From Acidobacteriota bacterium (GTDB lineage: Bacteria > Acidobacteriota > Terriglobia > Bryobacterales > Bryobacteraceae): a stretch of DNA of 30,677 nucleotides. Both the position numbers and the translations under genes were made by a program. Each line of letters opens with the position of its first letter. The stretch's first letter is position 1. The notes beneath the pieces are model-generated. The model was not told the DNA's origin and did no database searches. It was given only the letters and a program-made list of their open reading frames with translations. The stretch is from contig CANIFK010000001.1 of the NCBI GenBank assembly GCA_947466555.1, positions 1-30,677 on the forward strand, given 5' to 3'. Positions 2,970 through 17,049 of this stretch are shown here, piece after piece.

Positions 2970-4316
2970 TCAGGCGATGAGGGCGGGGACGGTGCGGCCG
3001 TGGATATCGGGCAGGGTGAAATCGCGGCCGGAGTAGCGGTAGGTCAGTTTGGTGTGGTCGATGCCGAGTAACTGAAGGACTGTGGCGTGTAAGTCGTGAA
3101 CAGTAACTACGTTTTCGACGGCGTGGTTGCCGAGTTCGTCGGTGGCACCATAAATGAGTCCCTTTTTCGAGCCGCCGCCGGCGAGCCAGATGGTGAACCC
3201 GAAGGGGTGGTGGTCGCGGCCGTCGCCGTTGCCGGTGTCGGGCGTGCGACCGAATTCGCCGGCCCAGATGATGAGGGTTTCGTCGAGAAGGCCGCGGGAC
3301 TTCAGGTCTTTGATGAGGGCTGTTACGCCTTGATCGGTGACCAGGGCGTTCGTCTGGTGGCCCTCGCGGAGTTTGTCGTGCTGATCCCAGGTGCCATTGT
3401 TGCCGCCGTAGAGGTTGGGCGGGGTGATCTCAACGAAGCGAACCCCGGATTCAATGAGCCGGCGGGCACGGAGGCATTGCAGGGAATAAGCCCGCTGGTG
3501 CTCGTTCTTGCTGTTGAGGCCGTATAACTCTTTGGTGGCTTCGGACTCTTTAGAGAGATCGAGAACGTCTGGCGTGAGGGCCTGCATGCGGTACGCCATT
3601 TCGCCGTTTTTGATGGCGGTTTCGATGGCGTCGTTATTGTGGGACTTGGCGAGGAAGGCGCGGTCCTGGGCGGCGAGGGCTTGGAGTTGGGCTCGTTGAA
3701 TGGGATCGGCCGCGGCGGGGACGATGTTTTCGACGGGGACGCCATCGGCACGGACGGACATGGCCTGGTGGGTGGCGGGGAGGAACCCGTTGGAGAAGTT
3801 TTCGAGGCCGCCGGGCGGGTTATCGCCGTGATTCAGTAGTAAGTAGCCAGGTAAGTTTTTGTTGGTGGAGCCGAGGCCGTAATTGACCCAGGAGCCGAGG
3901 GAAGGGAAGCCGCCGAAGTTCCGGCCGGTGTGGAGGAAGACGTTGGCGCGGGCGTGGAGCGGGAACTCCGATTTCATGCTGCGGACGACGCAGAGTTCGT
4001 CGGCGACGGTGGCGATGTGGGGGAAGAGTTCGCTGACGGGCAAGCCGGATTGGCCGTATTGCTTGAACTTCCAGGGGGAGCCGAGGTATTTGCGTTTGGG
4101 ACCGGAGACGTAGCTTTCCAGTTTTGCCTGCTGGCCGTCAAGCTGGGTCAACTTCGGTTTGGGGTCGAAGGTGTCCATGTGGGAAACGCCGCCGGGCATG
4201 AAGAGGAAGATGACGTTCTTGGCTTTGTGCTTCTGGACGGACTGGGCGTGGAGTGCCTGGAAGGCAAGGTAGCCGAAGCCGTTGGAGGCGGATTGGAGGA
4301 GTTGGCGGCGGGTCAT
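2970..4316 (-). CDS. DUF1501 family protein (Tat-exported, alkaline-phosphatase/sulfatase-like fold)
   Basis: Tat signal MTRRQLL. Family motifs VIFLFMPGGVSHMDTFDPKP, CLRARRLIESGVRFVE, WDQH, GEFGRTP, GRDHHP, DLHATVLQLLGID. Confidence 0.92.
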   Translation of the reverse strand: MTRRQLLQSASNGFGYLAFQALHAQSVQKHKAKNVIFLFMPGGVSHMDTFDPKPKLTQLDGQQAKLESYVSGPKRKYLGSPWKFKQYGQSGLPVSELFPHIATVADELCVVRSMKSEFPLHARANVFLHTGRNFGGFPSLGSWVNYGLGSTNKNLPGYLLLNHGDNPPGGLENFSNGFLPATHQAMSVRADGVPVENIVPAAADPIQRAQLQALAAQDRAFLAKSHNNDAIETAIKNGEMAYRMQALTPDVLDLSKESEATKELYGLNSKNEHQRAYSLQCLRARRLIESGVRFVEITPPNLYGGNNGTWDQHDKLREGHQTNALVTDQGVTALIKDLKSRGLLDETLIIWAGEFGRTPDTGNGDGRDHHPFGFTIWLAGGGSKKGLIYGATDELGNHAVENVVTVHDLHATVLQLLGIDHTKLTYRYSGRDFTLPDIHGRTVPALIA

Positions 4317-4328
4317 CAGCTTGTTGCT

Positions 4329-4334
4329 ATTGTA
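4329..4334 (-). promoter_or_regulatory. Candidate -10 hexamer (TACAAT) for the SD-less DUF1501 gene
   Basis: The 21-nt intergenic region reads acaTACAATagcaacaagctgATG on the minus strand. No SD and no convincing -35. Confidence 0.35.
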
Positions 4335-4337
4335 TGT

Positions 4338-5450
4338 TCAGATTGAGCCGTCCGCCAGATCCTGCGGGTAGAGGGACTCGATGTTGTCGCGGGTGAGGAC
4401 CTTCATTTTGGCGAAGAGGGCGGGGACGGTGGCCTTTTTCTCCAGCATGGGTGCGACGAGTTTCCACAACTGATTGCCGTAGTCTTCGGGTCCGAAGCCG
4501 ATGGCGCCAGCGAGGGGGCTGTCGGGGCGCCGGAGTTCGCGACGAATGTCGATGGCGCCCCCGAAACTCCAGACCTGCCAGAGACGGGCGCGGCCGGCCT
4601 CTTCGATGGCCTGGATGGCGCCCATGGCTGCCGGGTCACTGACACACACGACGATCCCGCGACGGAGGCGGGAGGAGCGCATTCTGGCGCGGAGGAGGCG
4701 GAGTCCGGTTTCAAAGGAGCCACGGCTATCGAGGCGTGTGAGCTGCAGTTCTTTGGCCCGGGGGGAGCGCTTCTCAAATGACTGGAGGAATCCGCTGAGG
4801 CGGGCGGCGGGGAGGGAGCCGAAGTGGATGTTGCCGACCAGGATGACTTCCTCAATGGGTTCTGCGGGTAGGAGTCGCCAGGCGGTCTGGCCGGCCATGA
4901 CCCCGGCGGCATAGTTATCGGCGCCGAAATAGGAGGCGCCGGCGATGGTCATGTCGATGGAGATGAGTGGAATACCGGAGCCATGAAAGAGGCTGGCCAG
5001 TTCGGGGCCGGTGTCGGATGCGGCTTGGAAGATGATCGCGACATCGACCTTCTCGCGAAGCATTCGCTGGGCGTTGCGGACGGTTTGGGAGACGCTGCCG
5101 CGATTGTCGAAGGAAAGGAGTTCGGCGTGGTGGGCGGCGGCGGTTTGGGTGATTGACTCGGTGACAGAGCGGGGGAAGGGAAGGCGATTGTCGCGGGAGG
5201 CGTAGCCGATGCGCGGGATGCGTTGTTCGCCGGTGGAGAAGAGGAGCGCGGCGGTATATCGGCCCGGGGACGGCTGGGTGACCCAGCCGTGGTGTTCGAG
5301 GGTCCGGAGGATGCGGAGGACGGTGGCTTTGTTGATTCCGGACTGGCGTGAGAGTTCGACAAGGGTCGTGGATTCACCGGGCAATTGCTGGAGGCGGGTG
5401 AAGACGTCGATCGCTCGTTCCAGATTGGTCAGGAGATAGGACGACGGCAT
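4338..5450 (-). CDS. Transcriptional regulator: IclR-type wHTH fused to a LacI/periplasmic-binding-protein-like sugar sensor domain
   Basis: N-terminus NLERAIDVF...TLVELSRQSGINKATVLRILRTLEHHGWV is an IclR HTH. C-terminal FDNRGSVSQTVRNAQRML...IPLISID...FGADNYAAGVMAG is a PBP type I fold. Start placed at 5450 because the upstream 9 codons overlap the operator and the -10. Confidence 0.85.
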   Translation of the reverse strand: MPSSYLLTNLERAIDVFTRLQQLPGESTTLVELSRQSGINKATVLRILRTLEHHGWVTQPSPGRYTAALLFSTGEQRIPRIGYASRDNRLPFPRSVTESITQTAAAHHAELLSFDNRGSVSQTVRNAQRMLREKVDVAIIFQAASDTGPELASLFHGSGIPLISIDMTIAGASYFGADNYAAGVMAGQTAWRLLPAEPIEEVILVGNIHFGSLPAARLSGFLQSFEKRSPRAKELQLTRLDSRGSFETGLRLLRARMRSSRLRRGIVVCVSDPAAMGAIQAIEEAGRARLWQVWSFGGAIDIRRELRRPDSPLAGAIGFGPEDYGNQLWKLVAPMLEKKATVPALFAKMKVLTRDNIESLYPQDLADGSI

Positions 5451-5467
5451 GGTTCTGTGAAAGAACC
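5451..5467. promoter_or_regulatory. Operator O1, palindrome GGTTCT-GTGAA-AGAACC
   Basis: Perfect 6-bp inverted repeat with a 5-bp spacer, abutting the regulator start codon. A second copy lies at 5539. Confidence 0.75.
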
Positions 5468-5476
5468 ACTCTATCA
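5468..5476 (-). promoter_or_regulatory. Candidate extended -10 (TGA-TAGAGT) of the regulator gene
   Basis: TGn-TAnnnT lying immediately upstream of O1, so O1 would cover the transcription start. Confidence 0.45.
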
Positions 5477-5538
5477 TTCAGGCGGAGGATTACCAGGGTG
5501 CTCTTCGTAAAGTGCGTAGGAAAGTGTCGCAACTGGTC

Positions 5539-5555
5539 GGTTCTATCAGCGAACC
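5539..5555. promoter_or_regulatory. Operator O2, palindrome GGTTCT-ATCAG-CGAACC
   Basis: Same length and arms as O1 (11 of 12 arm positions identical), about 10 bp upstream of the putative -35 of the receptor gene. Confidence 0.7.
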
Positions 5556-5565
5556 CTTTTCTCGG

Positions 5566-5595
5566 TTGCGTTGTGGTTGTTCTGTCTGTTACCTT
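5566..5595 (+). promoter_or_regulatory. Candidate sigma70 promoter of TonB-dependent receptor 1
   Basis: TTGCGT (5566-5571), 18 bp, then TACCTT (5590-5595) preceded by TGn. SD GAGGTG before ATG 5623. Confidence 0.4.
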
Positions 5596-5622
5596 TGCCC
5601 AATTCCCAGGTGAGGTGTCTCC

Positions 5623-8600
5623 ATGTTCATGAGAATGATTGCAGCGGCGGCGGTGTTGACCGGCCTGATCGGTGGTTTGCACGCGCAGACCGTGAGTGGT
5701 TCGATTGTCGGTTCCGTTCAGGATCCGAGCGGATCGGCGGTGCCGGGGGGCGATGTGAAGCTGAAGTCCGTGGACACGGGCGTTGAGCGGAGCTCGAAGG
5801 GATCGCCAACGGGCGACTTCGCGTTCCGAAACATTCCGCCGGGAGAGTACACGCTGAGTGTGACGGCGCAAGGATTCCGAAGACTCGAGCGGAAGGGACT
5901 GGTGCTGAGCCAATCGGAGACGCTGGCGACAGGCATCAGCACGCTGGAAGTGGGCGCGGTGACCGATACGGTGACGGTGACGACGCAGGGTGCGGTGGTG
6001 CAGACGGCGAGCAGCGAGCGCGGGAGCGTGATCACGGCGAGCCAGGTGGAGCGGATTCCGGTGCGCGGGCGCAATGCGTGGGACCTGATGCAACTGATGC
6101 CGGGGACGGTGCCCGCGGCGGCGACGAATGAGTCGATTTCTCGCAATACGCGCCTGAATGTGAATGGCGGCCGGATCAACTCATTGAGCGTTGTTGTGGA
6201 CGGAATGGGGATGAACCAAATCGGGAACTTCGCCAATCAATTGATGAACATCAGTATGGACGCGGTCGAAGAGGTGAAGGTCCTGATGTCGAACTATCAG
6301 GCCGAGTACGGCCGGACATCCGGGGCGGAGGTGCAGTTGGCGACCAAGTCCGGCAAGCGGGAGTTCCACGGGCTGTTCAGCTACTTCAAACGGCATGAAC
6401 AGTTCAATGCCAACAGTTTCTTCAACAACCGGAACGGACAGGTGAAGGGCCGGTACCGGTTCAACACGTTCAACTACAACATCGGTGGGCCTATCTTCAT
6501 TCCGGGGAAATTCAATACCGAAAAGAACAAGCTGTTCTTCTTCTTTTCGCAGGAGTTCTGGCCGGTAACGACGACTAGCTCGGGCCGGCTGACGATGCCG
6601 ACGGAACTGGAGCGAGCAGGGAACTACTCGCAAACGGTGGACCTGAATAACGCGTTGATTCCGATCCTTGATCCCACGTCCCGGCAGCCGATGCCGGGCA
6701 ATATCATCCCGGCGAGCCGGATCGATGGCAGCGGCCAGGCCTTGCTGAAAGTGTTCCCGCTGCCGAACTTCACGAACCGCCAGATTTCGGGTGGGAACTA
6801 CAACTACATCTTTAATGCCGAGACTGCGACGCCGCAGCGATTCGGAACGGCGCGCATTGACTACAACATCAGTGCGAAGCATCAGCTATACGGCACGTAT
6901 TCGTTCTATCTGGACCGGCAGACCGGGTGGCAGGTGGCAACGACGAGCGCCAACTGGAATCAATTGCCGCGGACCTACTGGACGGATCCGAAGCTGCTGG
7001 TGGTGCGCTACAACATGATCATTACGCCTACGCTGGTGAACGAATTGACTGTCGGGGCGAACGGGCGGAAGGAGGGCGAGGACATTGCCGCCGACGCCCT
7101 GGCGCAGAGCACGCGGAGCAAGATCGGCTTTACGGCCGGACAGTTCAGCCCCGGCGTGAACCCGTTGGGGCTGATTCCGAACGCCACGTTTGGCGGCGTT
7201 CCCGGGGCGGCGAATCTGTTTATGGACAACCGGACGCCGTTGCTTTCGACGCGACTGAATGTGCCGATCAGCGACAACATTACGAAGATCAAAGGCGGGC
7301 ACGTGTTTAAAGCCGGCTTTGTGGCGGAGCGGATTTTCGCCACCGCCAACGCGGCCAACCCATTCAATGGCAGCTACTCGTTCGCACGCGACGTGAACAA
7401 TCCGCTGGATACCGGGTACGCCTATAGCAACGCCTCTTTCGGTGTGTTCAGCTCGTACACGGAGCAACTGCGGCGGAATACGAATACGCAGTGGTTTACC
7501 TACGTGGAAGGGTATGTGCAGGATACGTGGAAGGTGAACAAGCACCTGACGCTCGACTATGGGTTGCGGTTCTCGCACCTGGGCAACGAGATTTTGCGTG
7601 GGAATATGGTGTCCACGTTCAACGCCGATTTCTGGGATCCGGCGAAGGCTGTGAAGCTGGTGCAGCCGGCGATCGTCGGCGGGCGTCGTGTGGGCCAGGA
7701 TCCGATTACGAAGGCGGTGTATCCGGCGACGGCGATTGGCGCGATCGCGCCGAACTCCGGGGATCCGGCGAATGGCATGGTGATCCCGGCGATCAATAAG
7801 TCCTATCCCGGTTCACTGATCGACACGCCGGCGGTGCTGGTGGCGCCCCGGTTTGGTTTTGCCTATGACCCGTGGGGCGACGGCAAGACGGCGGTGCGCG
7901 GCGGCGTGGGGCTGTTTAACCAGCGGAAGGACAACGCCTGGGGCGGACCGAATCCGCAGGTGCCGATCATCACTACGCCGACGGTTTACTACGGCACCCT
8001 TTCGACGTTGCTCTCTTCGACCGGGTTCACGTTCCCTTCGACGATCACTTCGGTGAAGCGGGATTCCAAGTCGCCGTACGCGATGAACGCGAGCCTTTCG
8101 GTCCAGCGGAATATCGGGTTTGGGACGGTGGTTGACGTTGCCTATGTGGGGACGTTCGGGCGGCATTTGGAGTGGGTGCGGGATCTGAACGCGATTCCGA
8201 TTGGGACGAATTTCAATCCGCGGAATGCGGATCCGACAAATGCCGCTGTGCCGTTGCCCTCGGCGTTTTTGCGGAAGTATCCGGGTTTCAACAACATTAA
8301 CCAGGCCGACTGGGCGGCCAACTCCAGCTACCACTCGTTGCAGGTGACGGCGAATCGCCGCTTTGCGAAGGGCCTGCAGTTTGGAGGGGCGTGGACGTGG
8401 TCGAAGGCGATGGGGTACGTGGATACCGACGGGTCCGCAGTCAGCGCGCTGGTGGATCCCAAGATCTGGAACTACTCGGTGGCCGGGTTTGACCGTACGC
8501 ATGTGCTGAAGCTGAACTACCTGTGGGAGGTGCCGGGCGGACCGTGGAAGAACCTGGCAGCCAAGCATGTGCTGCACGGGTGGCAGTTGTCCGGGATCAC

Positions 8601-9051
8601 CAGTTTCGTGACCGGTGCGCCGCTGGGCGTAGGGTACAACCTGGTGGTAAATCGGGACATTACGGGTACGCCGGATTTGGGCGCGCGCCTCAACGTACTG
8701 TCGAACCCGAATCTGCCGAAGGATCAGAAAACGTTCGGCCGGAATTTTAACACCGATGTCTTTGCACCGCCCGCGGTTGGCGCGATTGGCAACTCGGCGA
8801 AGTACCTGATTCGCGGACCCGGCGTGAACAACTTCGACATTTCGATGATCAAGAGCATTGCGGTGCGGGAGCCGTTCAAGGTGCAGTTGCGGTGCGAAGT
8901 CTACAACGCGTTCAATCACACGCAGTTCACGGCGATTGATACGACGGCGCGATTCGATGCGCAGTCGCGCCAGGTGAACGGGACGTTCGGGCAGTATACG
9001 GCGGCCAGCAATCCGCGGCTGATGCAGATTGCGATCCGGGCGCAGTTTTAG
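5623..9051 (+). CDS. TonB-dependent receptor 1 (carboxypeptidase-regulatory-like N-domain + plug + Oar-like barrel)
   Basis: Signal peptide, then GSIVGSVQDPSGSAVPG and plug motif EEVKVLMSNYQAEYGRTSGAEVQLATKSG. C-terminal PRLMQIAIRAQF with terminal Phe. 1142 aa. Confidence 0.93.
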   Translation: MFMRMIAAAAVLTGLIGGLHAQTVSGSIVGSVQDPSGSAVPGGDVKLKSVDTGVERSSKGSPTGDFAFRNIPPGEYTLSVTAQGFRRLERKGLVLSQSETLATGISTLEVGAVTDTVTVTTQGAVVQTASSERGSVITASQVERIPVRGRNAWDLMQLMPGTVPAAATNESISRNTRLNVNGGRINSLSVVVDGMGMNQIGNFANQLMNISMDAVEEVKVLMSNYQAEYGRTSGAEVQLATKSGKREFHGLFSYFKRHEQFNANSFFNNRNGQVKGRYRFNTFNYNIGGPIFIPGKFNTEKNKLFFFFSQEFWPVTTTSSGRLTMPTELERAGNYSQTVDLNNALIPILDPTSRQPMPGNIIPASRIDGSGQALLKVFPLPNFTNRQISGGNYNYIFNAETATPQRFGTARIDYNISAKHQLYGTYSFYLDRQTGWQVATTSANWNQLPRTYWTDPKLLVVRYNMIITPTLVNELTVGANGRKEGEDIAADALAQSTRSKIGFTAGQFSPGVNPLGLIPNATFGGVPGAANLFMDNRTPLLSTRLNVPISDNITKIKGGHVFKAGFVAERIFATANAANPFNGSYSFARDVNNPLDTGYAYSNASFGVFSSYTEQLRRNTNTQWFTYVEGYVQDTWKVNKHLTLDYGLRFSHLGNEILRGNMVSTFNADFWDPAKAVKLVQPAIVGGRRVGQDPITKAVYPATAIGAIAPNSGDPANGMVIPAINKSYPGSLIDTPAVLVAPRFGFAYDPWGDGKTAVRGGVGLFNQRKDNAWGGPNPQVPIITTPTVYYGTLSTLLSSTGFTFPSTITSVKRDSKSPYAMNASLSVQRNIGFGTVVDVAYVGTFGRHLEWVRDLNAIPIGTNFNPRNADPTNAAVPLPSAFLRKYPGFNNINQADWAANSSYHSLQVTANRRFAKGLQFGGAWTWSKAMGYVDTDGSAVSALVDPKIWNYSVAGFDRTHVLKLNYLWEVPGGPWKNLAAKHVLHGWQLSGITSFVTGAPLGVGYNLVVNRDITGTPDLGARLNVLSNPNLPKDQKTFGRNFNTDVFAPPAVGAIGNSAKYLIRGPGVNNFDISMIKSIAVREPFKVQLRCEVYNAFNHTQFTAIDTTARFDAQSRQVNGTFGQYTAASNPRLMQIAIRAQF

Positions 9052-9066
9052 AGGAGGCCGGCACGC

Positions 9067-10449
9067 ATGTCGATATCACGGAGAGAGTTCACCAGATTGT
9101 TGGGGGCTGGCGCGATGGCGCCAGCCGCGGGCCGGCGGCCGAACATCATTTTCATCCTGGCCGATGACCTGCGCTTTGACGATTTGAGCGCCGTGGGCAA
9201 CACGGTTCTTCGGACGCCGAACCTGGATGCCCTGGCGAAGAACGGAATCCGGTTCGAGAACGCGTTTGTGACGACGGCGATTTGCTGTTGCAGCCGGGCC
9301 AGCGTGCTGACCGGGCAGCATATGCGGCGCCATGGGGTCGAGGATTTCAAACGCCCCTTAACCGCCGCGCAGATGGAGAAGACCTATCCGGTGCTGCTGC
9401 GGAAGGCTGGTTATCGAACCGCCTTCCTGGGAAAGTTTGCCGTCGGGCAGCCCACGCCGGGAAACCGTGAGTTGGCATTGCCGAAGCACCAGTTCGATTT
9501 CTGGTACGGCTTTCCGCAGAGTATCGATTTCCGGCAGGAGATTGACGGAACTGTCCGGCATCTGACGCCGGTGATGACGGAGAAGGCGATCTCATTCTTG
9601 CGCTCGACGCCGGCGGAACAGCCGTTCCTGTTGTCGCTGAATTTCAAGGAACCGCACGGCCCGTTCAACTACTTTGATCCGGACCGGCCGAGTCAGTACA
9701 AGGACGCCCCGATTCCGGCGCCGGCGACGCATACCCGCGCGGATTTTGAAGCCGAGCCGGAGTTTCTGCGGCGTTCCTTGAACGGGAATAAAGACGGCCA
9801 GTGGCCGGCCGATGCCGAGGCGCAGCGGTTGGAGGAGGCGCGTATCTCCTACCACCTGGTGGCGGGGATTGATGACGCCGTGGGGAAGGTGATGGCGGCG
9901 TTGCGGGAGTTGAATCGGGACGGCGAGACGATCGTGATTTTCACGTCCGACAACGGGTCTTTCCGCGGGGCGCACGGGTTTACGGGCAAGTGGATCATGT
10001 ATGAAGAGTCGATCCGGGTGCCGCTGATTATTCGCGATCCGCGTATGCCGGAGAAGGTCCGGGGGACGTTGTGCAAGGAGATGGCGCTGAACATCGACAT
10101 GGCGCCGACGATGCTCTCCATGGCGGGCGTGGCGGTGGATTCGGGGATGCAGGGACTGGACCTGTCGCCGATTGTGGCAGGGCGGAAGATGTCGACGCGC
10201 ACCGAGTGGTTCTACGAACACACCTACAACACGGATGCGCCGCGGCTTCCGATTGTGCGGAGCGAAGGGGTGCGCGGGACGCGGTGGAAGTATATCCGCT
10301 ATCCGGACACCAAGCCGATGTTTGAGCAGCTATTCGATTTGGGCTCCGATCCGGTGGAGCGGCATAACCTGGCCGGGAAGGCGGAGCACAAGGCCGTGCT
10401 GGCGCGGTTACGGCGGCGGTGTGATGCGTTGAAGAGCGCGGCGGCGTGA
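9067..10449 (+). CDS. Formylglycine-dependent sulfatase (S1 family), Tat-exported
   Basis: Tat SRREF, PNIIFILADD, active-site AICCCSRASVLTG, GYRTAFLGKF, FTSDNG, YEESIRVPLIIRDP. SD GAGGAGG. Confidence 0.93.
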   Translation: MSISRREFTRLLGAGAMAPAAGRRPNIIFILADDLRFDDLSAVGNTVLRTPNLDALAKNGIRFENAFVTTAICCCSRASVLTGQHMRRHGVEDFKRPLTAAQMEKTYPVLLRKAGYRTAFLGKFAVGQPTPGNRELALPKHQFDFWYGFPQSIDFRQEIDGTVRHLTPVMTEKAISFLRSTPAEQPFLLSLNFKEPHGPFNYFDPDRPSQYKDAPIPAPATHTRADFEAEPEFLRRSLNGNKDGQWPADAEAQRLEEARISYHLVAGIDDAVGKVMAALRELNRDGETIVIFTSDNGSFRGAHGFTGKWIMYEESIRVPLIIRDPRMPEKVRGTLCKEMALNIDMAPTMLSMAGVAVDSGMQGLDLSPIVAGRKMSTRTEWFYEHTYNTDAPRLPIVRSEGVRGTRWKYIRYPDTKPMFEQLFDLGSDPVERHNLAGKAEHKAVLARLRRRCDALKSAAA

Positions 10450-10453
10450 GCGG

Positions 10454-13213
10454 TTACTGGAGGTAGAGGAACTCTTTGGAGTTGAAGATGGTGTGCGCGA
10501 GAGTGGGCCAGGGGTTCTGGCCCAAGGACTCGGCGAGCTGTTTGTAAGCTTTGACTTCTTCGGCCGAGGGAGGGCGGAGGAGGGCGGTTTCGAACATCTT
10601 CGTCAGGCGCTGTTCAAACGTTCCTTGAGGCAAGCGGTCGGCCCAGCCCTGGGCTTGCTGGAGGACGAAGGGATCGTTTAGCATTGCCAGGGACTGCGTG
10701 GGGACGTTGGTGACGTCTCGGTTGCCGCGGGTTTGGAGCGGGGCGGGGAAGTCGAAAATCTCCAGGAATTTGGGGCCTTGCATGCGGGTCACCTTGACGT
10801 AAATGCTGCGGCGGCCGTTGCCGTCGAGCGGACCCTGGAAGAGGCGGCGGTAGTCCGTGGGTTCCTTGCGGTGCGGCTGGACGCTGGGGCCGTACATGGT
10901 TTCGTCGAGGCGGCCGGAGACGGCGAGCAGCGTATCGCGGATGGACTCTGCGTCCAGACGGCGGATCTGATTTTCGGCCTGGAAGGCGTTGGTCAAAAGC
11001 AGTTGTTTGATGAGCGCCTTTGTGGACCAGCCGTTGCGCATGAAATCGGCGGCTAGGTGGTCGAGGAGATCGGGGTTCGAGGGCGGGTCACTCAGACGGC
11101 CGAAATTATCGGTGGAGGTGACGAGTCCTTTGCCGAAGATGTGATGCCAGACGCGGTTGACGAACACGCGCGCGGTGAGCGGGTTTTCCGGGCTGGCCAT
11201 GGCTTCTGCGACTTCCAGACGGCCGGAACCGTTCTTATCCACTTGGCGAAGCTTTTCGGGCATGAGGCTCAGGAAGTGCCGGGGCGCGGGACGGCCGGGG
11301 TTAAGCGCCTGGCCGCTTAGGAAGATGGGATGGTCGGCGCCGGGATCCATGTCGGCCATAGCGTTGACGACCGCGGGCGATTCCAGTTTGGCCTCGAAAG
11401 CGCGGTATTCGGCGGTCAATGTTTCCAGGGCGGGAATGGCGTCCCGACGGTTATTGAGGAGCCCGATCTCGATGGCGCGGTTGAGCGCGAGGACATCGGC
11501 ATCGGTAGCCTGCTGGGCGGCCCAGCGGCGGATGGCATCGGCGAGGGGGACCGTGTTCTTGATGGGTTTGGGTGCGTCGCTCTCGTTGTGATACCAGGCC
11601 TGGGAGACGACGAACCAGGAGCGGGTGATGGTTTCCGCCGGGTTGGTTTTGAATCTGCCGGGGCGCTCGGGCAGGCGGGGGTTGTCGGTGATGGTGTCGA
11701 CTTCCAAATAGGTACGGAGCGGTTGGTCGTTGCGGGTGGGGACCTTTTCGAGGTGGAGCGCGGGGCCTTCGATCAACTTGTGGTCTTCGCCGATGACGCA
11801 GTGGTCCATGACGGTGCGGTGGGCGGCGGCGTTAGCGCCGGACATCTGGAAGGTCAGGAACTTCTTGTCGCGCGGGAGGATGGGGGAGCGGAGGGAGCCG
11901 TTCCATCTGTCGGTCGTGGCGTTGGTGGCGAGGCCGTTGGGAAAGATGGTTTCTATGGCCGCGTCGCCGGTGGTGGCGATGGCGAAGTCGCCCGCTTTCA
12001 CTGGTTCCAGTCCAATGCCGGAGGCGGACCAACCGGGGGGGAGGCCATTGGCGAAATTGACTGACGGGGCGGGGAGTTGTTGGATCTCGATGGCCGATTG
12101 GCCGGCTTGCTGAAGCCAGAGCTTGGCGAGTTCGCTGCGGATGGACTGCTTGAGGTTGGCCAGGTTCGGTTTAGTTGGTTTGTTGAGCGTTTGAACGACG
12201 GGGCGGGAGCTATTGATGATGCCGTAGAGGGCGTAGTAGTCCTCGGTGGGAATTGGGTCGAACTTGTGGTCGTGGCAGCGGGCGCAACTGACGGTGACGC
12301 CCTGGAAGGCCTTTGTGAGGGTGTCGATCTGGTTGTCAACGACGTCGGTGCGGAGTTCGGGGAACTGGTTGCAGTTGTCGTGACCCATTTCGCCGAAGCG
12401 CCAGAAGGCGGTGGCGAGGGTGGATTCGTTTTGGCCGTTGGCGAGGCGCGGGGTTTTAAGCAGGTCGCCGGCGACGTGTTCCTTCACGAACTGATCGTAG
12501 GGGAGGTCCTGGTTAAAGGCGCGGATGAGGTAGTCCCGATAGCGCCAGGCGCCGTGGATTTCGTAGTTCCACTCGTAGCCGTAAGTCTCCCCGAAGCGCA
12601 TCAGATCGAGCCAGTGGCGGGCCCAGCGTTCGCCGTAGCGGGGGCTGCTTAGGAGCCCGTCGATGTAGTTGGCGTACGCGCTGGGTGAGGAGTCGTTGAG
12701 GAATTGCGCGAGGAGTTCGGGCTTGGGAGGGAGGCCGGTGGCTGCGTAGGCGGCGCGGCGGGCGAGGGTGCGTTTGTCGGATGATTTCGCGGCCGTTTTG
12801 AGGAAGGCGTCGATGGGTTGGGGCGGGACCTTACGGAGGGGCTGGAAGGCCCAGTGGGGGGCCTTGGCTTCTTTGGCTGGTTGCGCGTTGGGCCACGGGG
12901 CGCCTTGGTCGAGCCATCGTTCGATGGCGTTGATCTCGTCGTTGGTGAGTCTTCCGCCGGGTGGCATTTTGAGGGCGCCCTGTTGGCGGATGGCGGCTTT
13001 GATTTGCTCGGCGCCGGGGCCACGGTGGCCACCTTTGAGGATGGCGTCGCGCGAATCGAGGCGGATGCCGGAGAGCTGTTGGGCGGGGCCATGGCAGCCC
13101 TGGCATTTGGTGGCTAAAACGGGACGGACCCGGCTTTCAAAGAAAGCCGGGTCCGTGGTTGCCTCCTGCGCGTTCGCGAGTAAGGCGATGGCGGGCAGAA
13201 GTAGGAAGCGCAT
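10454..13213 (-). CDS. Planctomycete-type cytochrome c / PSCyt2 (DUF1549) / PSD1 (DUF1553) protein
   Basis: Sec signal, CQGCH (13091-13105), YGERWARHWLDLMRF, CARCHDHKFDPI (CxxCH at 12272-12286), NPLTARVFVNRVWHHIFGKGLV, RRLDAESIRD, NVPTQSLAMLN. Confidence 0.92.
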   Translation of the reverse strand: MRFLLLPAIALLANAQEATTDPAFFESRVRPVLATKCQGCHGPAQQLSGIRLDSRDAILKGGHRGPGAEQIKAAIRQQGALKMPPGGRLTNDEINAIERWLDQGAPWPNAQPAKEAKAPHWAFQPLRKVPPQPIDAFLKTAAKSSDKRTLARRAAYAATGLPPKPELLAQFLNDSSPSAYANYIDGLLSSPRYGERWARHWLDLMRFGETYGYEWNYEIHGAWRYRDYLIRAFNQDLPYDQFVKEHVAGDLLKTPRLANGQNESTLATAFWRFGEMGHDNCNQFPELRTDVVDNQIDTLTKAFQGVTVSCARCHDHKFDPIPTEDYYALYGIINSSRPVVQTLNKPTKPNLANLKQSIRSELAKLWLQQAGQSAIEIQQLPAPSVNFANGLPPGWSASGIGLEPVKAGDFAIATTGDAAIETIFPNGLATNATTDRWNGSLRSPILPRDKKFLTFQMSGANAAAHRTVMDHCVIGEDHKLIEGPALHLEKVPTRNDQPLRTYLEVDTITDNPRLPERPGRFKTNPAETITRSWFVVSQAWYHNESDAPKPIKNTVPLADAIRRWAAQQATDADVLALNRAIEIGLLNNRRDAIPALETLTAEYRAFEAKLESPAVVNAMADMDPGADHPIFLSGQALNPGRPAPRHFLSLMPEKLRQVDKNGSGRLEVAEAMASPENPLTARVFVNRVWHHIFGKGLVTSTDNFGRLSDPPSNPDLLDHLAADFMRNGWSTKALIKQLLLTNAFQAENQIRRLDAESIRDTLLAVSGRLDETMYGPSVQPHRKEPTDYRRLFQGPLDGNGRRSIYVKVTRMQGPKFLEIFDFPAPLQTRGNRDVTNVPTQSLAMLNDPFVLQQAQGWADRLPQGTFEQRLTKMFETALLRPPSAEEVKAYKQLAESLGQNPWPTLAHTIFNSKEFLYLQ

Positions 13214-13215
13214 AG

Positions 13216-16200
13216 TTAGAACTGGAGGTTCAGACCGAGCTTCAGGAAGCGGGGCAAGTTACCCTGCACCGGGTTGAGGCGGCCGAAGGCGCCGTTGGTG
13301 ACGTCGGTGGACTGAATGCCGGTGAACCAGGGGTGGTTCATGGCGTTCACCATTTCGAAGCGGAACTGCATCTTCACGCGCTCGTGGATCGGGAAGATCT
13401 TCGAGATCGAAGCGTCCCAGTTCTCGTAGCCAGGCGTGCGGACGTCGGAGAAGCGCAGGGGGAAGTTCCGGAGAGTGAACGGTTCCTGTGCGCCGACGAA
13501 ACGGTTGGTGGTGGGGCTGACCCAGAGGTCGGTGTTGAAGTACTTACCGAGCGTGGGGTTGTCGAGTTTGGCCGAACCGTTGGTGACCTGACCGGCGTTG
13601 GGGTAGTTGATCGTCGCACCAGCCATGTAGGTGATGTTGGCGTTCATTTCCCAGCCGCCGGCGATGAAGTCGGCAACTTTATTGAAGTTAGACCCGAACT
13701 TCTTACCCCGGCCGACGGGCAGCTGCCAGACGGTGGCGAGGTTGAACTTGCGCGGGATGTCGATATCGGGAGCCGACTGCTTGACGAGGTTCGAGGAGGC
13801 CGGGTCGGAGAGGTTGAAATCCTGCACGTTGAGGAAGGCAACCCGTTCGAGGGTCTTCGAGCCGGTGAAGCTGGCGAGGAAGGTCAGGCCCTGGGAGAAG
13901 CGCTTGGACGCCTTGATTTGGAAGGAGTCATAGCGCTGACGGCCGATGGGCAAGTTGTTGATGCTGAGCGGCGTGTACTGCGGGAAGGTGAACAGGAGGG
14001 TCTGGCGGGTGATGGTGGCACCGTTCAGAGCCGCGTTGTTCGGGATCAAGCCGCGCATCGGGTTGGAAACCTGCGCATTGTAGTAGGCGTTGTCGATCAC
14101 GCCCGCCGAGGTGCGGCGGCCGAGTTCGGCGGTCGGAATGAAGTTCGCCGTGGTGCCGATCGGCAGCTTGTTGATGAGGTTGCCAACGAAGGCCGCTTCG
14201 ACCAGGACGCCGCCGGCCAGCTCGCGCTGGATGTCGATGGAGTACTGATGCGAATAGGGCAGCGGGCGATCCTGCCAGTTGACGCCGAGGCCCTGGCCGA
14301 GGAAGCTGGCGGCGCCTTCGGCGTTGCCGACGGCGGAGAGCAAGCGACCGCCGACCTGGTTGGTGAAGGCGTTGGCGAGGGAGACCGCGGGACGGAGGTT
14401 ATCCACCGTGGTGGTCACGTTCGTGCGCTGCGAGTAGCCCTGGTTGGAACCGGTGGCCGACTGGCCCATGTAGAACAGACCATAGCCGCCGCGGACAACC
14501 CACTTCTCGCCGAGGCGATAGGCGAAGCCGACGCGGGGGGCGAAGTTGTTCTTGTCCGGGTTGAATGAGCCGCGAGGCGTGCCGCCCTGGCCGGCAAATT
14601 TCACGGCGCCCTTGAGGTTCAGACCGGTGGCCTGGGCCGCGATGGGGCTGGCGGCGTTGAAGTCGAGCGCCTGCACCATGCGGTCATAGCGTTCGTAGGC
14701 GGGCGACTCGTAATCCCAGCGCAAGCCCATGTTGATGGTCAGGCGGTTGGTGACTTTGAAGTCGTCCTGGAAGAAGCCGGCGTAGAAGTAGTTGACGAAA
14801 GCCGGGTCGATGTTGCGGTCGGCGAAGCCGGACGAGGGATAGCCGAGCAGGAACGTGGCGAGTTCGTTTCCGGCCGTGGCTTCCGCCTGGTTGGAAACAC
14901 GCTGAGTCCAGTTCTTGGTGAAGGTGTAGTTACCCGAAGCAAAGCCGGGGTTGGCAGTGTTGACGTTGTACTTGCGGGCTTCGACGCCAAACTTCATGAA
15001 GTGGCGGCCGATGACCTTATTGATGTTCGGCTGAATGGTGTAGGTGTCGAACGCGCCGGTGTTCTGGAGCGTGCCGGTTCCCATGGCCTGGTAGGCGCCG
15101 TTGAATTCAAAGCGCGGGAAGGCGAGCTTGGTGAACTGGTTGACGAGAGCCGAATCGAACCCGAGCTGCTTGGGGTCGAAGCCGGTGCCGTAGGAGCTAC
15201 CAGAGGACTCTTCCCAGCGGTTCAGGCCGAGACGCAAGTCGAAGGTGGTGGTGGGGTTCAACGTGGAAGTCCAGTTGAATCCGAAGGTGCGGCCGTTGCG
15301 GATCAGCGGCGCGTTACCGGTGGGTTCGGCGGGGTTGGCGTCGTTCACGTTCTTGACGAACACGAGACCGCGGTACTCGCTGAACGGATTCTGACCGTAA
15401 CGGAAGTTGGTGTTGTTCTTGGCGTTGACCTGATAGTCCATACGGCCGCCCCACTGGAACATGTCCGCAACCCAGCGCGAGGGGTAGGGGTAGTTGAGGA
15501 CTTGGGCCGGGCCGTTGCCGGCGGAGGTGGGGGCCGGGTAGTACTTGAGGGCCGCGGTGGCGATGGGGCTGATGCGCGAAGCCGGGATGATGTTGCCGGG
15601 GAACGCGGTACGGGTGCCATCGGCCTGCGTCGTCAACGGATCGTAGATGCCGACGAGCGCGTTCTGGGCGTTGCGCAGCGTGGAGAAGTTGCCACCGCGC
15701 CAATCCATGGCGGGCACGGTCTGCACACCGGGGTCGGCCGAGCGCTGGCGCATTTCTTCGTGCGAAATGGTCCAGAAGAGCTTGTTGCGGCCGTCGAGCA
15801 GTTTCGGAATCAGGACCGGGCCGGAGAGGAAGAAGCCGTAGGAGTTGATGTTGTTCGGAGACTTCTTGATGCCGCCGGCGTTCAATTCCCACTGATTGGC
15901 GTTCAACTTGTCGTTCTGGAAGTATTCAAAAAGATTGCCGTGGAGCTGGTTGGTACCGGACTTGGTCACCATGGTGACGATGCCACCACCGGTGCGGCCG
16001 TACTGCGCGTCGTAGGTATTGGTCAGCACCTTGAACTCCTGAACGGATTCCATGGTGGGGACGTGGATAACGGTACGGGAGGAGCGCACGTTGGACATAC
16101 CGTCCAGCAGCACTTCGTTTTCACCGGAGCGGCCGCCGTTGACGGAGAACCCGGTGGTGCCGCCGATGTCGAAGGAGCGCAGATAGCGCCAGCCGCCGGC

Positions 16201-16692
16201 CTTGAACACGCCGGGCGCGGCCCAGGCGATCTGGAAGGGGTTGCGGCCCTGCGTGGGCAGGTTGGCGATCAGCTGATTGTTGAGCGCCGTATCGCGGTTG
16301 GCGGTTTCGGTCTGCAGTTGGCTAACGGCGGCGTTCACCGTGATGGAGTCGGCAACAGCGCCGACCTGGAGCTGGACGTCGAGACGGGCCTTGTCGAGTG
16401 ATTGGAGAATCACGTTGTCCCGAACGACACGGCGGAAGCCGTCTTTTTCGAAGGTGACGTTGTAGGCTGCCGGTTCGAGGAGCGGGGTGCTGTACAGTCC
16501 GCCATCATTGGTGGACGTGGCGATTTTGGTGTTCTTGGCGAGGTTGGTAACGGTGACCTGGGCTCCCGGAATTGGGGCGCCGGAGGGGTCGGTAACGATG
16601 CCGGAGAGGCTGGCGCGGACTTCTTGCGCAGACACGGCGGCACCGGCTAGTACGCATGCTAACAAAGCACGCTGCAAGACGAGGCGATTCAT
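13216..16692 (-). CDS. TonB-dependent receptor 2 (carboxypeptidase-regulatory-like N-domain + plug + Oar-like barrel)
   Basis: Start re-assigned to 16692 (SD GGAG, MNRLVLQRALLACVLAGAAVSAQ signal peptide). Motifs LSGIVTDPSGAPIPGA and QEFKVLTNTYDAQYGRTGGG, C-terminal RFLKLGLNLQF. Only 2 nt separate it from the PSD1 gene. Confidence 0.92.
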   Translation of the reverse strand: MNRLVLQRALLACVLAGAAVSAQEVRASLSGIVTDPSGAPIPGAQVTVTNLAKNTKIATSTNDGGLYSTPLLEPAAYNVTFEKDGFRRVVRDNVILQSLDKARLDVQLQVGAVADSITVNAAVSQLQTETANRDTALNNQLIANLPTQGRNPFQIAWAAPGVFKAGGWRYLRSFDIGGTTGFSVNGGRSGENEVLLDGMSNVRSSRTVIHVPTMESVQEFKVLTNTYDAQYGRTGGGIVTMVTKSGTNQLHGNLFEYFQNDKLNANQWELNAGGIKKSPNNINSYGFFLSGPVLIPKLLDGRNKLFWTISHEEMRQRSADPGVQTVPAMDWRGGNFSTLRNAQNALVGIYDPLTTQADGTRTAFPGNIIPASRISPIATAALKYYPAPTSAGNGPAQVLNYPYPSRWVADMFQWGGRMDYQVNAKNNTNFRYGQNPFSEYRGLVFVKNVNDANPAEPTGNAPLIRNGRTFGFNWTSTLNPTTTFDLRLGLNRWEESSGSSYGTGFDPKQLGFDSALVNQFTKLAFPRFEFNGAYQAMGTGTLQNTGAFDTYTIQPNINKVIGRHFMKFGVEARKYNVNTANPGFASGNYTFTKNWTQRVSNQAEATAGNELATFLLGYPSSGFADRNIDPAFVNYFYAGFFQDDFKVTNRLTINMGLRWDYESPAYERYDRMVQALDFNAASPIAAQATGLNLKGAVKFAGQGGTPRGSFNPDKNNFAPRVGFAYRLGEKWVVRGGYGLFYMGQSATGSNQGYSQRTNVTTTVDNLRPAVSLANAFTNQVGGRLLSAVGNAEGAASFLGQGLGVNWQDRPLPYSHQYSIDIQRELAGGVLVEAAFVGNLINKLPIGTTANFIPTAELGRRTSAGVIDNAYYNAQVSNPMRGLIPNNAALNGATITRQTLLFTFPQYTPLSINNLPIGRQRYDSFQIKASKRFSQGLTFLASFTGSKTLERVAFLNVQDFNLSDPASSNLVKQSAPDIDIPRKFNLATVWQLPVGRGKKFGSNFNKVADFIAGGWEMNANITYMAGATINYPNAGQVTNGSAKLDNPTLGKYFNTDLWVSPTTNRFVGAQEPFTLRNFPLRFSDVRTPGYENWDASISKIFPIHERVKMQFRFEMVNAMNHPWFTGIQSTDVTNGAFGRLNPVQGNLPRFLKLGLNLQF

Positions 16693-16741
16693 TTGGACTC
16701 CAAAGCGAATGAGGTTCCCTGACATCGGGAAGACTTGCCAA

Positions 16742-16769
16742 ATTATATCGCAGTTCCTTAATGTATCCA
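16742..16769 (-). promoter_or_regulatory. Candidate sigma70 promoter for the receptor 2 - PSD1 operon
   Basis: Perfect TATAAT (16747-16742) with TGGATA 16 bp upstream, in an AT-richer intergenic region. Confidence 0.5.
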
Positions 16770-16902
16770 GGCCCTTAGTACTTTGGTTGGAGTATCGAAC
16801 CGGTCCGGGACTGGGCATGGTTTGGGTACTGAGTTGCCATGGCGCGGCCTCGGTTTTTCTCCTAATTTTAGGTATGGAAAAGAACAGCGAGGGCAGAACC
16901 GC

Positions 16903-17049
16903 ATGGGTCATTCTTTGGCTTTAATGTTCGAGACTGTCGCACAGGTCCTTCACCAATCGATCGATCCGGTGCCGGAACGCTTCTTTCATCTGATGTCCGG
17001 ACTGGTGTTGATCGCCGTGGGATTCCGGATGCGGAAGAGTTTCGAGTAG
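16903..17049 (+). CDS. Putative 48-aa (or 41-aa from 16924) membrane micro-protein with a PEP-CTERM-like C-terminus
   Basis: MGHSLALMFETVAQVLHQSIDPVPERFFHLMSGLVLIAVGFRMRKSFE*: VPE motif, hydrophobic helix and basic tail. GAGGG lies upstream. The stop is 5 nt from the convergent asparaginase stop. Confidence 0.5.
   Translation: MGHSLALMFETVAQVLHQSIDPVPERFFHLMSGLVLIAVGFRMRKSFE

Follow-up and report, generated by a model that had tools for sequence, protein, structure and literature searches.

A receptor-led PSD1–DUF1501 gene triad, apparently split by an inserted sulfatase cassette, in a genome of the Bryobacteraceae

The locus considered here occupies positions 2970–16911 of a 30,677-nucleotide stretch of DNA (the window) from a member of the Acidobacteriota, family Bryobacteraceae (contig CANIFK010000001.1, assembly GCA_947466555.1). 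It encodes two TonB-dependent receptors (TBDR1 and TBDR2), a protein with PSCyt1, PSCyt2 and PSD1 domains (the PSD1 protein), a DUF1501 protein, a sulfatase and a regulator. Judged from gene order in related genomes, TBDR2, PSD1 and DUF1501 form an ancestral unit, and the other three genes are a cassette that was inserted exactly into the spacer between PSD1 and DUF1501 in the common ancestor of this organism and its nearest relative. The explanation that we favour, with somewhat better than even confidence, is a receptor-led triad split by an autonomous cassette, and to the triad we attribute a role in substrate uptake. The original prediction had interpreted the whole locus as one uptake system resembling a polysaccharide utilization locus (PUL); its coupling of a receptor to PSD1, the recurrence of this coupling and an interface between PSD1 and DUF1501 are upheld by the analysis below, the single six-gene system is not.

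Gene content of the locus

The window, whose DNA is nearly completely represented in freshwater and lake-water metagenomes, is the largest contig in a 5.69-Mb metagenome-assembled genome (859 contigs, 84% complete). This genome is referred to as G000 and its relatives by other G-codes; L-codes denote loci, and C-codes contigs of G000. Domains were assigned with Pfam, which recognized all six genes named in the original prediction; NCBIfam gave no informative names. The features of the locus are as follows.

2970–4316, minus strand: DUF1501 protein (Pfam PF07394, E 1e-136), 448 aa, with a twin-arginine (Tat) leader
4338–5477, minus strand: regulator with an IclR-type helix-turn-helix (HTH) and a Peripla_BP_4 domain (Pfam)
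5623–9051, plus strand: TBDR1 with CarboxypepD_reg, Plug and OMP_b-brl_4 domains (Pfam), a cassette member
9067–10449, plus strand: S1-type Tat sulfatase with Sulfatase and SGSH_C domains (Pfam and sequence)
10454–13213, minus strand: PSD1 protein, 919 aa, with PSCyt1 (PF07635), PSCyt2 (PF07583) and PSD1 (PF07587) domains (Pfam)
13216–16911, minus strand: open reading frame (ORF) of TBDR2, likely start 16692, with CarboxypepD_reg and OMP_b-brl_4 domains (Pfam and translation)
4317–10453: inserted 6.1-kb cassette in the PSD1–DUF1501 spacer, delimited by comparison of junctions with cassette-less relatives
5451–5467 and 5539–5555: two palindromes in the divergent regulator/TBDR1 region, candidate operators
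16742–16769, minus strand: promoter-like TGGATA-16-TATAAT, a consensus match only (10/12)

The N-terminal sequences agree with the export routes assigned earlier, with twin-arginine leaders on DUF1501 (MTRRQLL) and the sulfatase (MSISRREF) and a Sec-type leader on the PSD1 protein. Neither the ORFs nor Pfam reveal a SusD, a glycoside hydrolase or a lyase within 2970–16911, in line with the earlier statement that SusD and glycoside hydrolases are missing, and no inner-membrane sugar transporter is present in the stretch beside the receptor, regulator and sulfatase genes.

Orthologous loci in relatives

Forty relatives were searched with the PSD1 protein, and 20 loci were fetched and mapped by gene family. 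The loci that bear most directly on the history of the window are listed below with the identity of their PSD1 proteins.

G004, 94%: exact architecture of the window
G016, 92%: no cassette; unrelated 1.7-kb insert between PSD1 and DUF1501
G013, 92%: no cassette; PSD1–DUF1501 gap of 21 nt
G023, 75%: contiguous receptor, PSD1 and DUF1501 genes
G018, 74%: contiguous receptor, PSD1 and DUF1501 genes
G005, 70%: no receptor; a histidine kinase gene follows
G003, 69%: receptor and PSD1 kept; MacB-like gene in place of DUF1501
G006, 65%: contiguous receptor, PSD1 and DUF1501 genes

The order TBDR2–PSD1 is kept in six species of the genus besides that of the window. TBDR2 orthologues of 78–96% identity lie directly upstream of the PSD1 orthologues in G004, G016, G018, G023 and G003. 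The junction in the window reads TTC TAA ct ATG, which confirms the gap of 2 nt reported earlier, and an identical gap is found in G004, G016 and G023; the adjacency of receptor and PSD1, on whose conservation the original prediction had staked its case, is in this sense a conserved one. Only G004, G016 and G013 have the genes that flank the locus in the window. At 45% identity or above, none of them was found in the stretches fetched from G023, G018, G003 and G006, where TBDR2–PSD1 persists. Because PSD1 and DUF1501 are neighbours in G013, G023, G018 and G006, their separation in the window is secondary, and on the evidence of gene order the triad of TBDR2, PSD1 and DUF1501 (module A), with TBDR2 as its first gene, is the ancestral unit.

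The regulator, TBDR1 and the Tat sulfatase constitute a second module (module B), which by the same comparison is separate from module A. It fills the PSD1–DUF1501 spacer only in G000 and in G004, its closest relative, and is absent from the orthologous loci of G013, G016, G018, G023 and G006; by parsimony over the relatives, it was inserted on the branch that leads to G000 and G004. About 17 nt preceding the DUF1501 ATG are common to the window, G004 and the cassette-less G013. Since the regulator stop codon abuts these 17 nt, and the sulfatase stop codon lies 4 nt from that of PSD1, the 6.1-kb block sits exactly in the old spacer. Moreover, G023 carries homologous regulator, sulfatase (64% identical) and receptor genes on a contig other than that of its intact triad. 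This stand-alone module suggests that the cassette is an autonomous regulon and, together with the absence of the insertion from five orthologous loci, it is the reason why the six genes do not hold up as one system. No target duplication, inverted or terminal repeats, transposase or integrase was found at the cassette ends.

G000 and G004 are collinear over 18.9 kb with 92.6% nucleotide identity. In the five genes compared by codon position, from which PSD1 was left out because of an indel, identity is 0.83–0.91 at position 3 and 0.97–0.996 at positions 1 and 2; on this five-gene comparison, we regard all six genes as being under purifying selection. A recent horizontal arrival of the cassette was rejected, because synonymous identity is 0.88–0.91 for the cassette, 0.88 for DUF1501 and 0.83 for TBDR2, and thus carries no signal of a younger age. 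DUF1501 is now 6.1 kb away from PSD1 and follows the regulator gene after 21 nt; it is probably transcribed with the latter gene rather than with PSD1.

The spacer between PSD1 and DUF1501 is a hot spot in this orthologue group. The insert in G016 (L032:8460–10180) resembles an ORF of G000 (C428_1_1477), the spacer in G023 (L033:8436–8744) contains C-rich repeats, and that in G018 (L034:11423–11495) a hairpin and a T-run. An interpretation of the 1.7-kb G016 spacer as a cassette remnant, which would imply deletion, was rejected because its similarity is to this other ORF and not to the cassette.

The receptor and its recurrence beside PSD1 genes

TBDR2 is a TonB-dependent receptor of the acidobacterial type, with a signal peptide, a CarboxypepD_reg domain, a plug and a barrel of about 900 aa. 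Its true start is likely at 16692 (MNRLV...), because a signal peptide follows and the promoter-like site lies about 50 nt upstream. The best TBDR2 paralogues in G000 are only 42–43% identical (C719 and C345), and since they are not located beside PSD1 genes, the existence of a dedicated clade of PSD1-linked receptors was rejected.

A census of G000 was made on crude ORFs with hidden Markov models (HMMs) built from the proteins of the window, and the resulting counts refer to ORF pieces: about 98 of the PSD1 family, many of which match only the N-terminal cytochrome c (the Pfam PSD1 count is 66), 66 of DUF1501, 54 of sulfatases and 159 of TonB-dependent receptors. In G035, a complete genome from another family of the Bryobacterales with 86 PSCyt2 matches, 65 of the 160 receptor candidates were scored and six loci were fetched. 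Four receptor–PSD1 junctions of 52–174 nt were found, i.e., at least four among the 65 scored receptors compared with about 0.7 expected (Poisson P ~0.006, our own estimate), and because the PSD1 genes differ in size the junctions look like independent events. Two of these arrays are receptor–PSD1–DUF1501, one is receptor–PSD1–DUF1501–PSD1–DUF1501, and one is receptor–PSD1–PSD1–DUF1501; further loci are receptor–sulfatase–PSD1–DUF1501 (L139:443–9751) and a receptor followed by PSD1 after a gap of 1.4 kb. With the sulfatase-containing one counted, G035 has at least five receptor-led arrays. Alongside the loci on C825 and C826 of G000, these arrays indicate that the receptor-led arrangement has recurred independently within the Bryobacterales.

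A wider sample of 80 PSD1 loci was drawn from Planctomycetota, Verrucomicrobiota, Bacteroidota, Acidobacteriota, Armatimonadota and Poribacteria. Receptors were present only in acidobacterial loci (5 of ~17), and in 1 of the 80 loci a receptor is positioned upstream of PSD1, with one gene between them. The sample contains no receptor-led PSD1–DUF1501 array outside Acidobacteriota, and in its four Bacteroidota loci Pfam gives no SusC-type receptor upstream. The receptor link thus recurs but is the arrangement of a minority of loci, and all cases seen so far are from Acidobacteriota. In the planctomycete Maioricimonas sp., a co-directional array reads PSD1–sulfatase–DUF1501 (L092:7899–14897). 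An enrichment of sulfatase genes around PSD1 genes was considered and rejected, being indistinguishable from chance at these frequencies.

Structure models of the PSD1 and DUF1501 proteins

The AlphaFold2 model of the PSD1 protein (pLDDT 91.6, pTM 0.87) features four domains: a cytochrome c domain (residues 20–105), a helical PSCyt2 domain (~120–345), a β-sandwich (~372–556) and a helical PSD1 domain (~560–919). Two CxxCH motifs are present, CQGCH at 37–41 and CARCH at 310–314. The earlier designation of the protein as di-heme is borne out as far as the two motifs are concerned, but only the first resides in a recognizable class I cytochrome c domain, where Met83 is conserved; the second belongs to the CxxCHDHK of PSCyt2, which is invariant. 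Across 76 sequences drawn from many phyla, Cys310, Cys313, His314, His316 and Lys317 are invariant, and Cys37, Cys40, His41 and Met83 are at least 90% conserved. Residues 20–105 give weak profile matches to cytochrome c-552, cytochrome c6 and the haem domain of hydrazine synthase, and cytochrome c maturation genes are present in G000. The β-sandwich (380–546) matches jelly-rolls of the carbohydrate-binding module (CBM), MAM and reelin types (VIA Z 8–10, Foldseek E ~1e-3), with CBM61, CBM29, CBM16 and a porphyran-binding CBM among its neighbours. For the helical PSCyt2 and PSD1 domains, no solved relatives were identified by sequence profile, Foldseek or VIA-align.

Elsewhere in G000, ORFs of about 427 aa fuse an N-terminal PSCyt1-like cytochrome c with an FGE-sulfatase domain (C351:4153–5436, C34:3048–4331 and C696), and on C139 a gene with an FGE domain (C139:4756–5445) is located directly 3′ of a PSD1–DUF1501 pair.

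The DUF1501 model (pLDDT 89) has the core fold of the alkaline phosphatase superfamily, and Foldseek matches it to S1 sulfatases and LtaS (E 1e-8, TM ~0.4), as the earlier comparison with the sulfatase/alkaline phosphatase fold had suggested. The formylglycine motif (CxPxR; C/S-x-P-x-R) does not occur in DUF1501. Seven residues, Ser45, Asp48, Asp51, Asp311, His313, Asp368 and His369, are at least 90% conserved and constitute a candidate catalytic or metal site.

PSD1 and DUF1501 are habitual neighbours, as stated in the original prediction. About 55 immediate same-strand PSD1–DUF1501 pairs make this the dominant arrangement in G000, and the same order is present in ~62 of the 80 loci across phyla. 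The best paralogues of the PSD1 and DUF1501 proteins of the window adjoin each other on C378, which supports the view that the two are cognate despite their separation. A complex was predicted from PSD1 residues 128–345 and 560–919 together with DUF1501 residues 30–448. It scored 0.81, 0.82 and 0.81 in three runs, compared with 0.00 for the best of three controls, so that the interface asked for in the original prediction is indeed predicted; because no homologous solved complex exists for PSD1–DUF1501, this outcome is unlikely to reproduce a known structure. In the model, PSD1 residues 748–919 contact the DUF1501 cap (121–245) as well as His121 and residue 307, and the conserved PSD1 residues Arg752, Gln840, Leu842, Asn846, Glu886 and Glu914 take part. 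Binding of the C-terminal PSD1 domain to the DUF1501 cap is thus supported by prediction.

The inserted cassette

The regulator combines an IclR-type winged HTH with a sensor domain of the periplasmic-binding-protein (PBP) type, which has a sugar-binding fold. Among the 40 relatives, its orthologues occur only in G004 (98%) and G023 (66–69%); the TBDR1 proteins of the window and of G004 share 99.6% identity, and the receptor belonging to the stand-alone module of G023 is 55% identical to TBDR1. Palindromes of the form GGTTCT-N5-MGAACC give four strand matches compared with 0.15 expected, are confined to the regulator/TBDR1 region of the window, and are likely to be the operators of this chimeric IclR-HTH/PBP regulator. 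No such palindrome is present upstream of TBDR2. In G027, a regulator paralogue of 33% identity is divergent from a PSD1 ... DUF1501 pair (L133, 1583–8988), and in G028 another is divergent from a receptor gene (L132).

The active-site motif of the cassette sulfatase is CCCSR (residues 72–76), in which Cys replaces the Pro/Ala of C/S-x-P/A-x-R, and which therefore departs from the maturation motif; in other respects its Sulfatase and SGSH_C domains are clear. Classical FGE requires the proline of the sulfatase motif. CCCSR is kept in G004, the stand-alone module in G023 has CCCNR, and the motif type is unique among the 54 sulfatase ORFs of G000, a genome with 13 FGE-domain matches.

A proposed mechanism and the case against it

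In the mechanism that we propose for the triad, TBDR2 would import an organic substrate of a size that porins do not admit, most likely an oligosaccharide with ester groups or other decorations. The periplasmic PSD1 protein would hold the substrate on its CBM-like β-sandwich and present it to DUF1501, which would act as a metallo-enzyme of the sulfatase fold using its Ser/Asp/His site instead of formylglycine. The class I cytochrome c domain and the CxxCHDHK motif may provide a redox or metal input to the pair. In the predicted complex, the PSD1 domain is placed at the cap (~121–245), next to His121 and residue 307 and near the presumed metal site. The cassette would be a separate receptor/sulfatase regulon under its own regulator and operators, and as a side effect of its insertion DUF1501 would have come under transcription with the regulator gene in place of PSD1.

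Several observations weigh against this explanation. It would be odd for predicted partners to be split onto different promoters if they are needed together. DUF1501 does not follow PSD1 in G005 and G003, and no receptor lies upstream of the PSD1 orthologues in another family (47–54% identity) or in a clade of the genus at 58–60% identity, where PSD1 is still followed by DUF1501; in this clade, the upstream same-strand gene is GH42-like with an agarase-CBM-like domain (L038:6144–8270 and L039:3016–5103). In G000, a receptor directly precedes three of ~50 PSCyt2/PSD1 genes with a visible 5′ flank (in the window and on C825 and C826), compared with about one expected. Because this is near chance, the receptor link is not established by the genome of the window by itself, and receptor–PSD1 adjacency becomes convincing only when gene order in the relatives is included. 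As for the complex, in the calibration 58 of 80 solved complexes attain its score, as do 2 of 110 mismatched pairs, counts that are only roughly valid here because cut chains and our own alignments were used, unlike in the calibration. Conservation at the interface does not exceed that in the remainder of the proteins and was therefore rejected as added support. The modelled β-sandwich has a CBM-like fold, a fold match that does not by itself imply glycan binding. Contigs from the RNA libraries of three freshwater metatranscriptome runs, which are 90–95% alike to the window, cover most of TBDR2 and parts of PSD1 and almost none of the cassette. They are weak evidence because they derive from relatives and because carry-over of DNA is possible. 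None in the three runs bridges the TBDR2/PSD1 junction at 13213/13216, and with such patchy coverage a reading of co-transcription from the public data was dropped. Finally, with respect to the substrate, the activity and expression in this organism, the explanation rests on sequence and models.

Alternative explanations

If the six genes instead formed one integrated PUL-like system acting on the same sulfated substrate, with the cassette recruited to complete the pathway, the persistence of the cassette would be readily explained, as its genes are kept under purifying selection in two species and DUF1501, 21 nt behind the regulator, is probably under its control. Sulfatases also recur in the arrays L139 (G035) and L092 (planctomycete), a regulator paralogue is divergent from the PSD1 ... 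DUF1501 pair in G027 (L133), and the parts of He et al. (2017, PMC5615132) that concern these genes place sulfatase genes near PSCyt genes in Verrucomicrobia. We nevertheless consider such an integrated system unlikely. The cassette is absent from the loci of the triad in G016, G013, G023, G018 and G006, a homologous module of the cassette type exists in G023 without the triad on its contig, and in G016 the spacer is occupied by an insert of unrelated sequence. TBDR2 lacks an upstream operator, the RNA contigs favour TBDR2 and PSD1 over the cassette, if weakly, and since sulfatases amount to about 1% of genes, chance would place about as many within a few kb of PSD1 genes as are found there. 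A functionally meaningless adjacency of receptor and PSD1, in which chance neighbours were inherited together, is in our estimate very unlikely. It would accommodate the three cases among ~50 PSD1 genes in a genome with 159 receptor and ~98 PSD1-family pieces, the single cross-phylum locus with an upstream receptor at one gene's distance, and the deeper PSD1 orthologues without a receptor. However, the orthologous pair is found in seven species, down to PSD1 identities of 65–69% and in four of them with the flank genes not found, the gap of 2 nt is unchanged in G004, G016 and G023, and the tight junctions in G035 exceed the expected number and involve PSD1 genes that look independent.

PSD1–DUF1501 could also be an electron-transfer or oxidoreductase module, as put forward by Kamneva et al. 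(2012), with DUF1501 as a redox-cofactor or structural subunit and the receptor delivering a substrate for oxidation. The class I cytochrome c domain with its CxxCH and methionine, together with the invariant CxxCHDHK, is consistent with this proposal, as are the cytochrome c–FGE fusions and the FGE-like gene directly after PSD1–DUF1501 on C139, and the Tat export of DUF1501 fits cytoplasmic cofactor insertion (PMC3542564). On the other hand, all matches of the DUF1501 model are to hydrolases or transferases from the alkaline phosphatase superfamily, and its conserved Asp, His and Ser residues line up as a metal site. Because many PSD1 paralogues are without the N-terminal cytochrome domain (HMM start 115–145), the latter seems dispensable for the core function, and we regard the oxidoreductase alternative as quite unlikely. 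Returning to the receptor-led triad with a separate cassette, a broader generalization is doubtful but can be stated: the dozens of PSD1–DUF1501 heterodimers of Bryobacterales may be periplasmic processing partners of TonB-dependent importers and an acidobacterial counterpart to the SusC/D locus, each recognizing a different substrate through a variable CBM-like insert and de-esterifying or redox-modifying it.

Few gene families are as expanded in Planctomycetota, Verrucomicrobiota and Bryobacterales as PSCyt/PSD1 and DUF1501, with about 60–85 pairs per genome here, or roughly 2–3% of genes; TonB-dependent receptors make up about 3%. If the broader generalization is true, the receptor-led triad would be the first genomic handle that ties the 20-year-old PSCyt/PSD1/DUF1501 enigma to nutrient uptake. 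The conserved and recurrent TonB link, the predicted PSD1–DUF1501 clamp and the CBM-like insert turn "habitual neighbours" into testable claims, and the cassette insertion provides a natural experiment, with close lake populations that have (G000, G004) and do not have (G013) the split. The pair itself was already known; the receptor link and the split are a new architectural variant, an incremental advance that does not amount to a system of a new kind.

Comparison with known systems

The domains of the PSD1 protein were reportedly defined by Studholme and co-workers in 2004 in Rhodopirellula baltica. The module of PSCyt1/PSCyt2/PSD1 and DUF1501, with its leaders and its expansion, is treated in the relevant passages of Kamneva et al. 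(2012, PMC3542564), where electron transport was proposed, and the corresponding passages of He et al. (2017, PMC5615132) report the same genes from freshwater Verrucomicrobia, with CBM inserts and neighbouring sulfatases, and deal with TonB-dependent receptors separately. The passages of these two papers that our searches returned do not link a receptor to PSCyt genes, and neither a functional study nor a receptor link emerged when the literature was searched for DUF1501, DUF1549, DUF1553 and PSCyt. The pair in the window shares with the module of Kamneva et al. its domains, Sec and Tat leaders, both CxxCH motifs and a massive paralogy. It differs in being receptor-led with a 2-nt junction, in being split by a 6.1-kb cassette, and in its host, which belongs to Acidobacteriota and not to the Planctomycetes–Verrucomicrobia–Chlamydiae group. 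In that module PSD1 and DUF1501 are neighbours, as they are in G013, G023, G018 and G006, but in the window three genes separate them.

As in the carbohydrate utilization loci with TonB-dependent receptors (CUT loci; Blanvillain et al. 2007, as cited in the passages of PMC5615132), the cassette and, more loosely, the triad bring together a TonB-dependent receptor, degradative enzymes of the periplasm and a regulator of the sugar type, and have no SusD. Unlike CUT loci, the window has no glycoside hydrolase and the locus no inner-membrane transporter, and the enzymes are a sulfatase and a protein of the sulfatase fold. With the SusC/SusD PULs of Bacteroidota, the locus has in common a TonB-dependent importer with a CarboxypepD_reg domain beside periplasmic processing proteins, and the many paralogous loci, but SusD, carbohydrate-active enzymes and a hybrid two-component or ECF regulator are absent. 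Among S1 sulfatases and enzymes of the LtaS type, sulfamidase, arylsulfatase A, choline sulfatase and LtaS itself can be superposed on the DUF1501 model (E 1e-8 to 1e-6). Identity is 11–14%, however, and TM ~0.4; DUF1501 is without C/S-x-P-x-R and has a long helical cap (~121–290), the predicted site at which the PSD1 domain is held.

Neighbouring genes

The locus is flanked by an ABC-2 exporter on one side and by asparaginase and phosphoketolase genes on the other. The ABC-2 exporter genes are a syntenic flank and belong to neither module. Further along, positions 25416–30350 contain an ORF of 1644 aa, for which the label of a giant subtilase with periodic repeats is that of the original prediction only.

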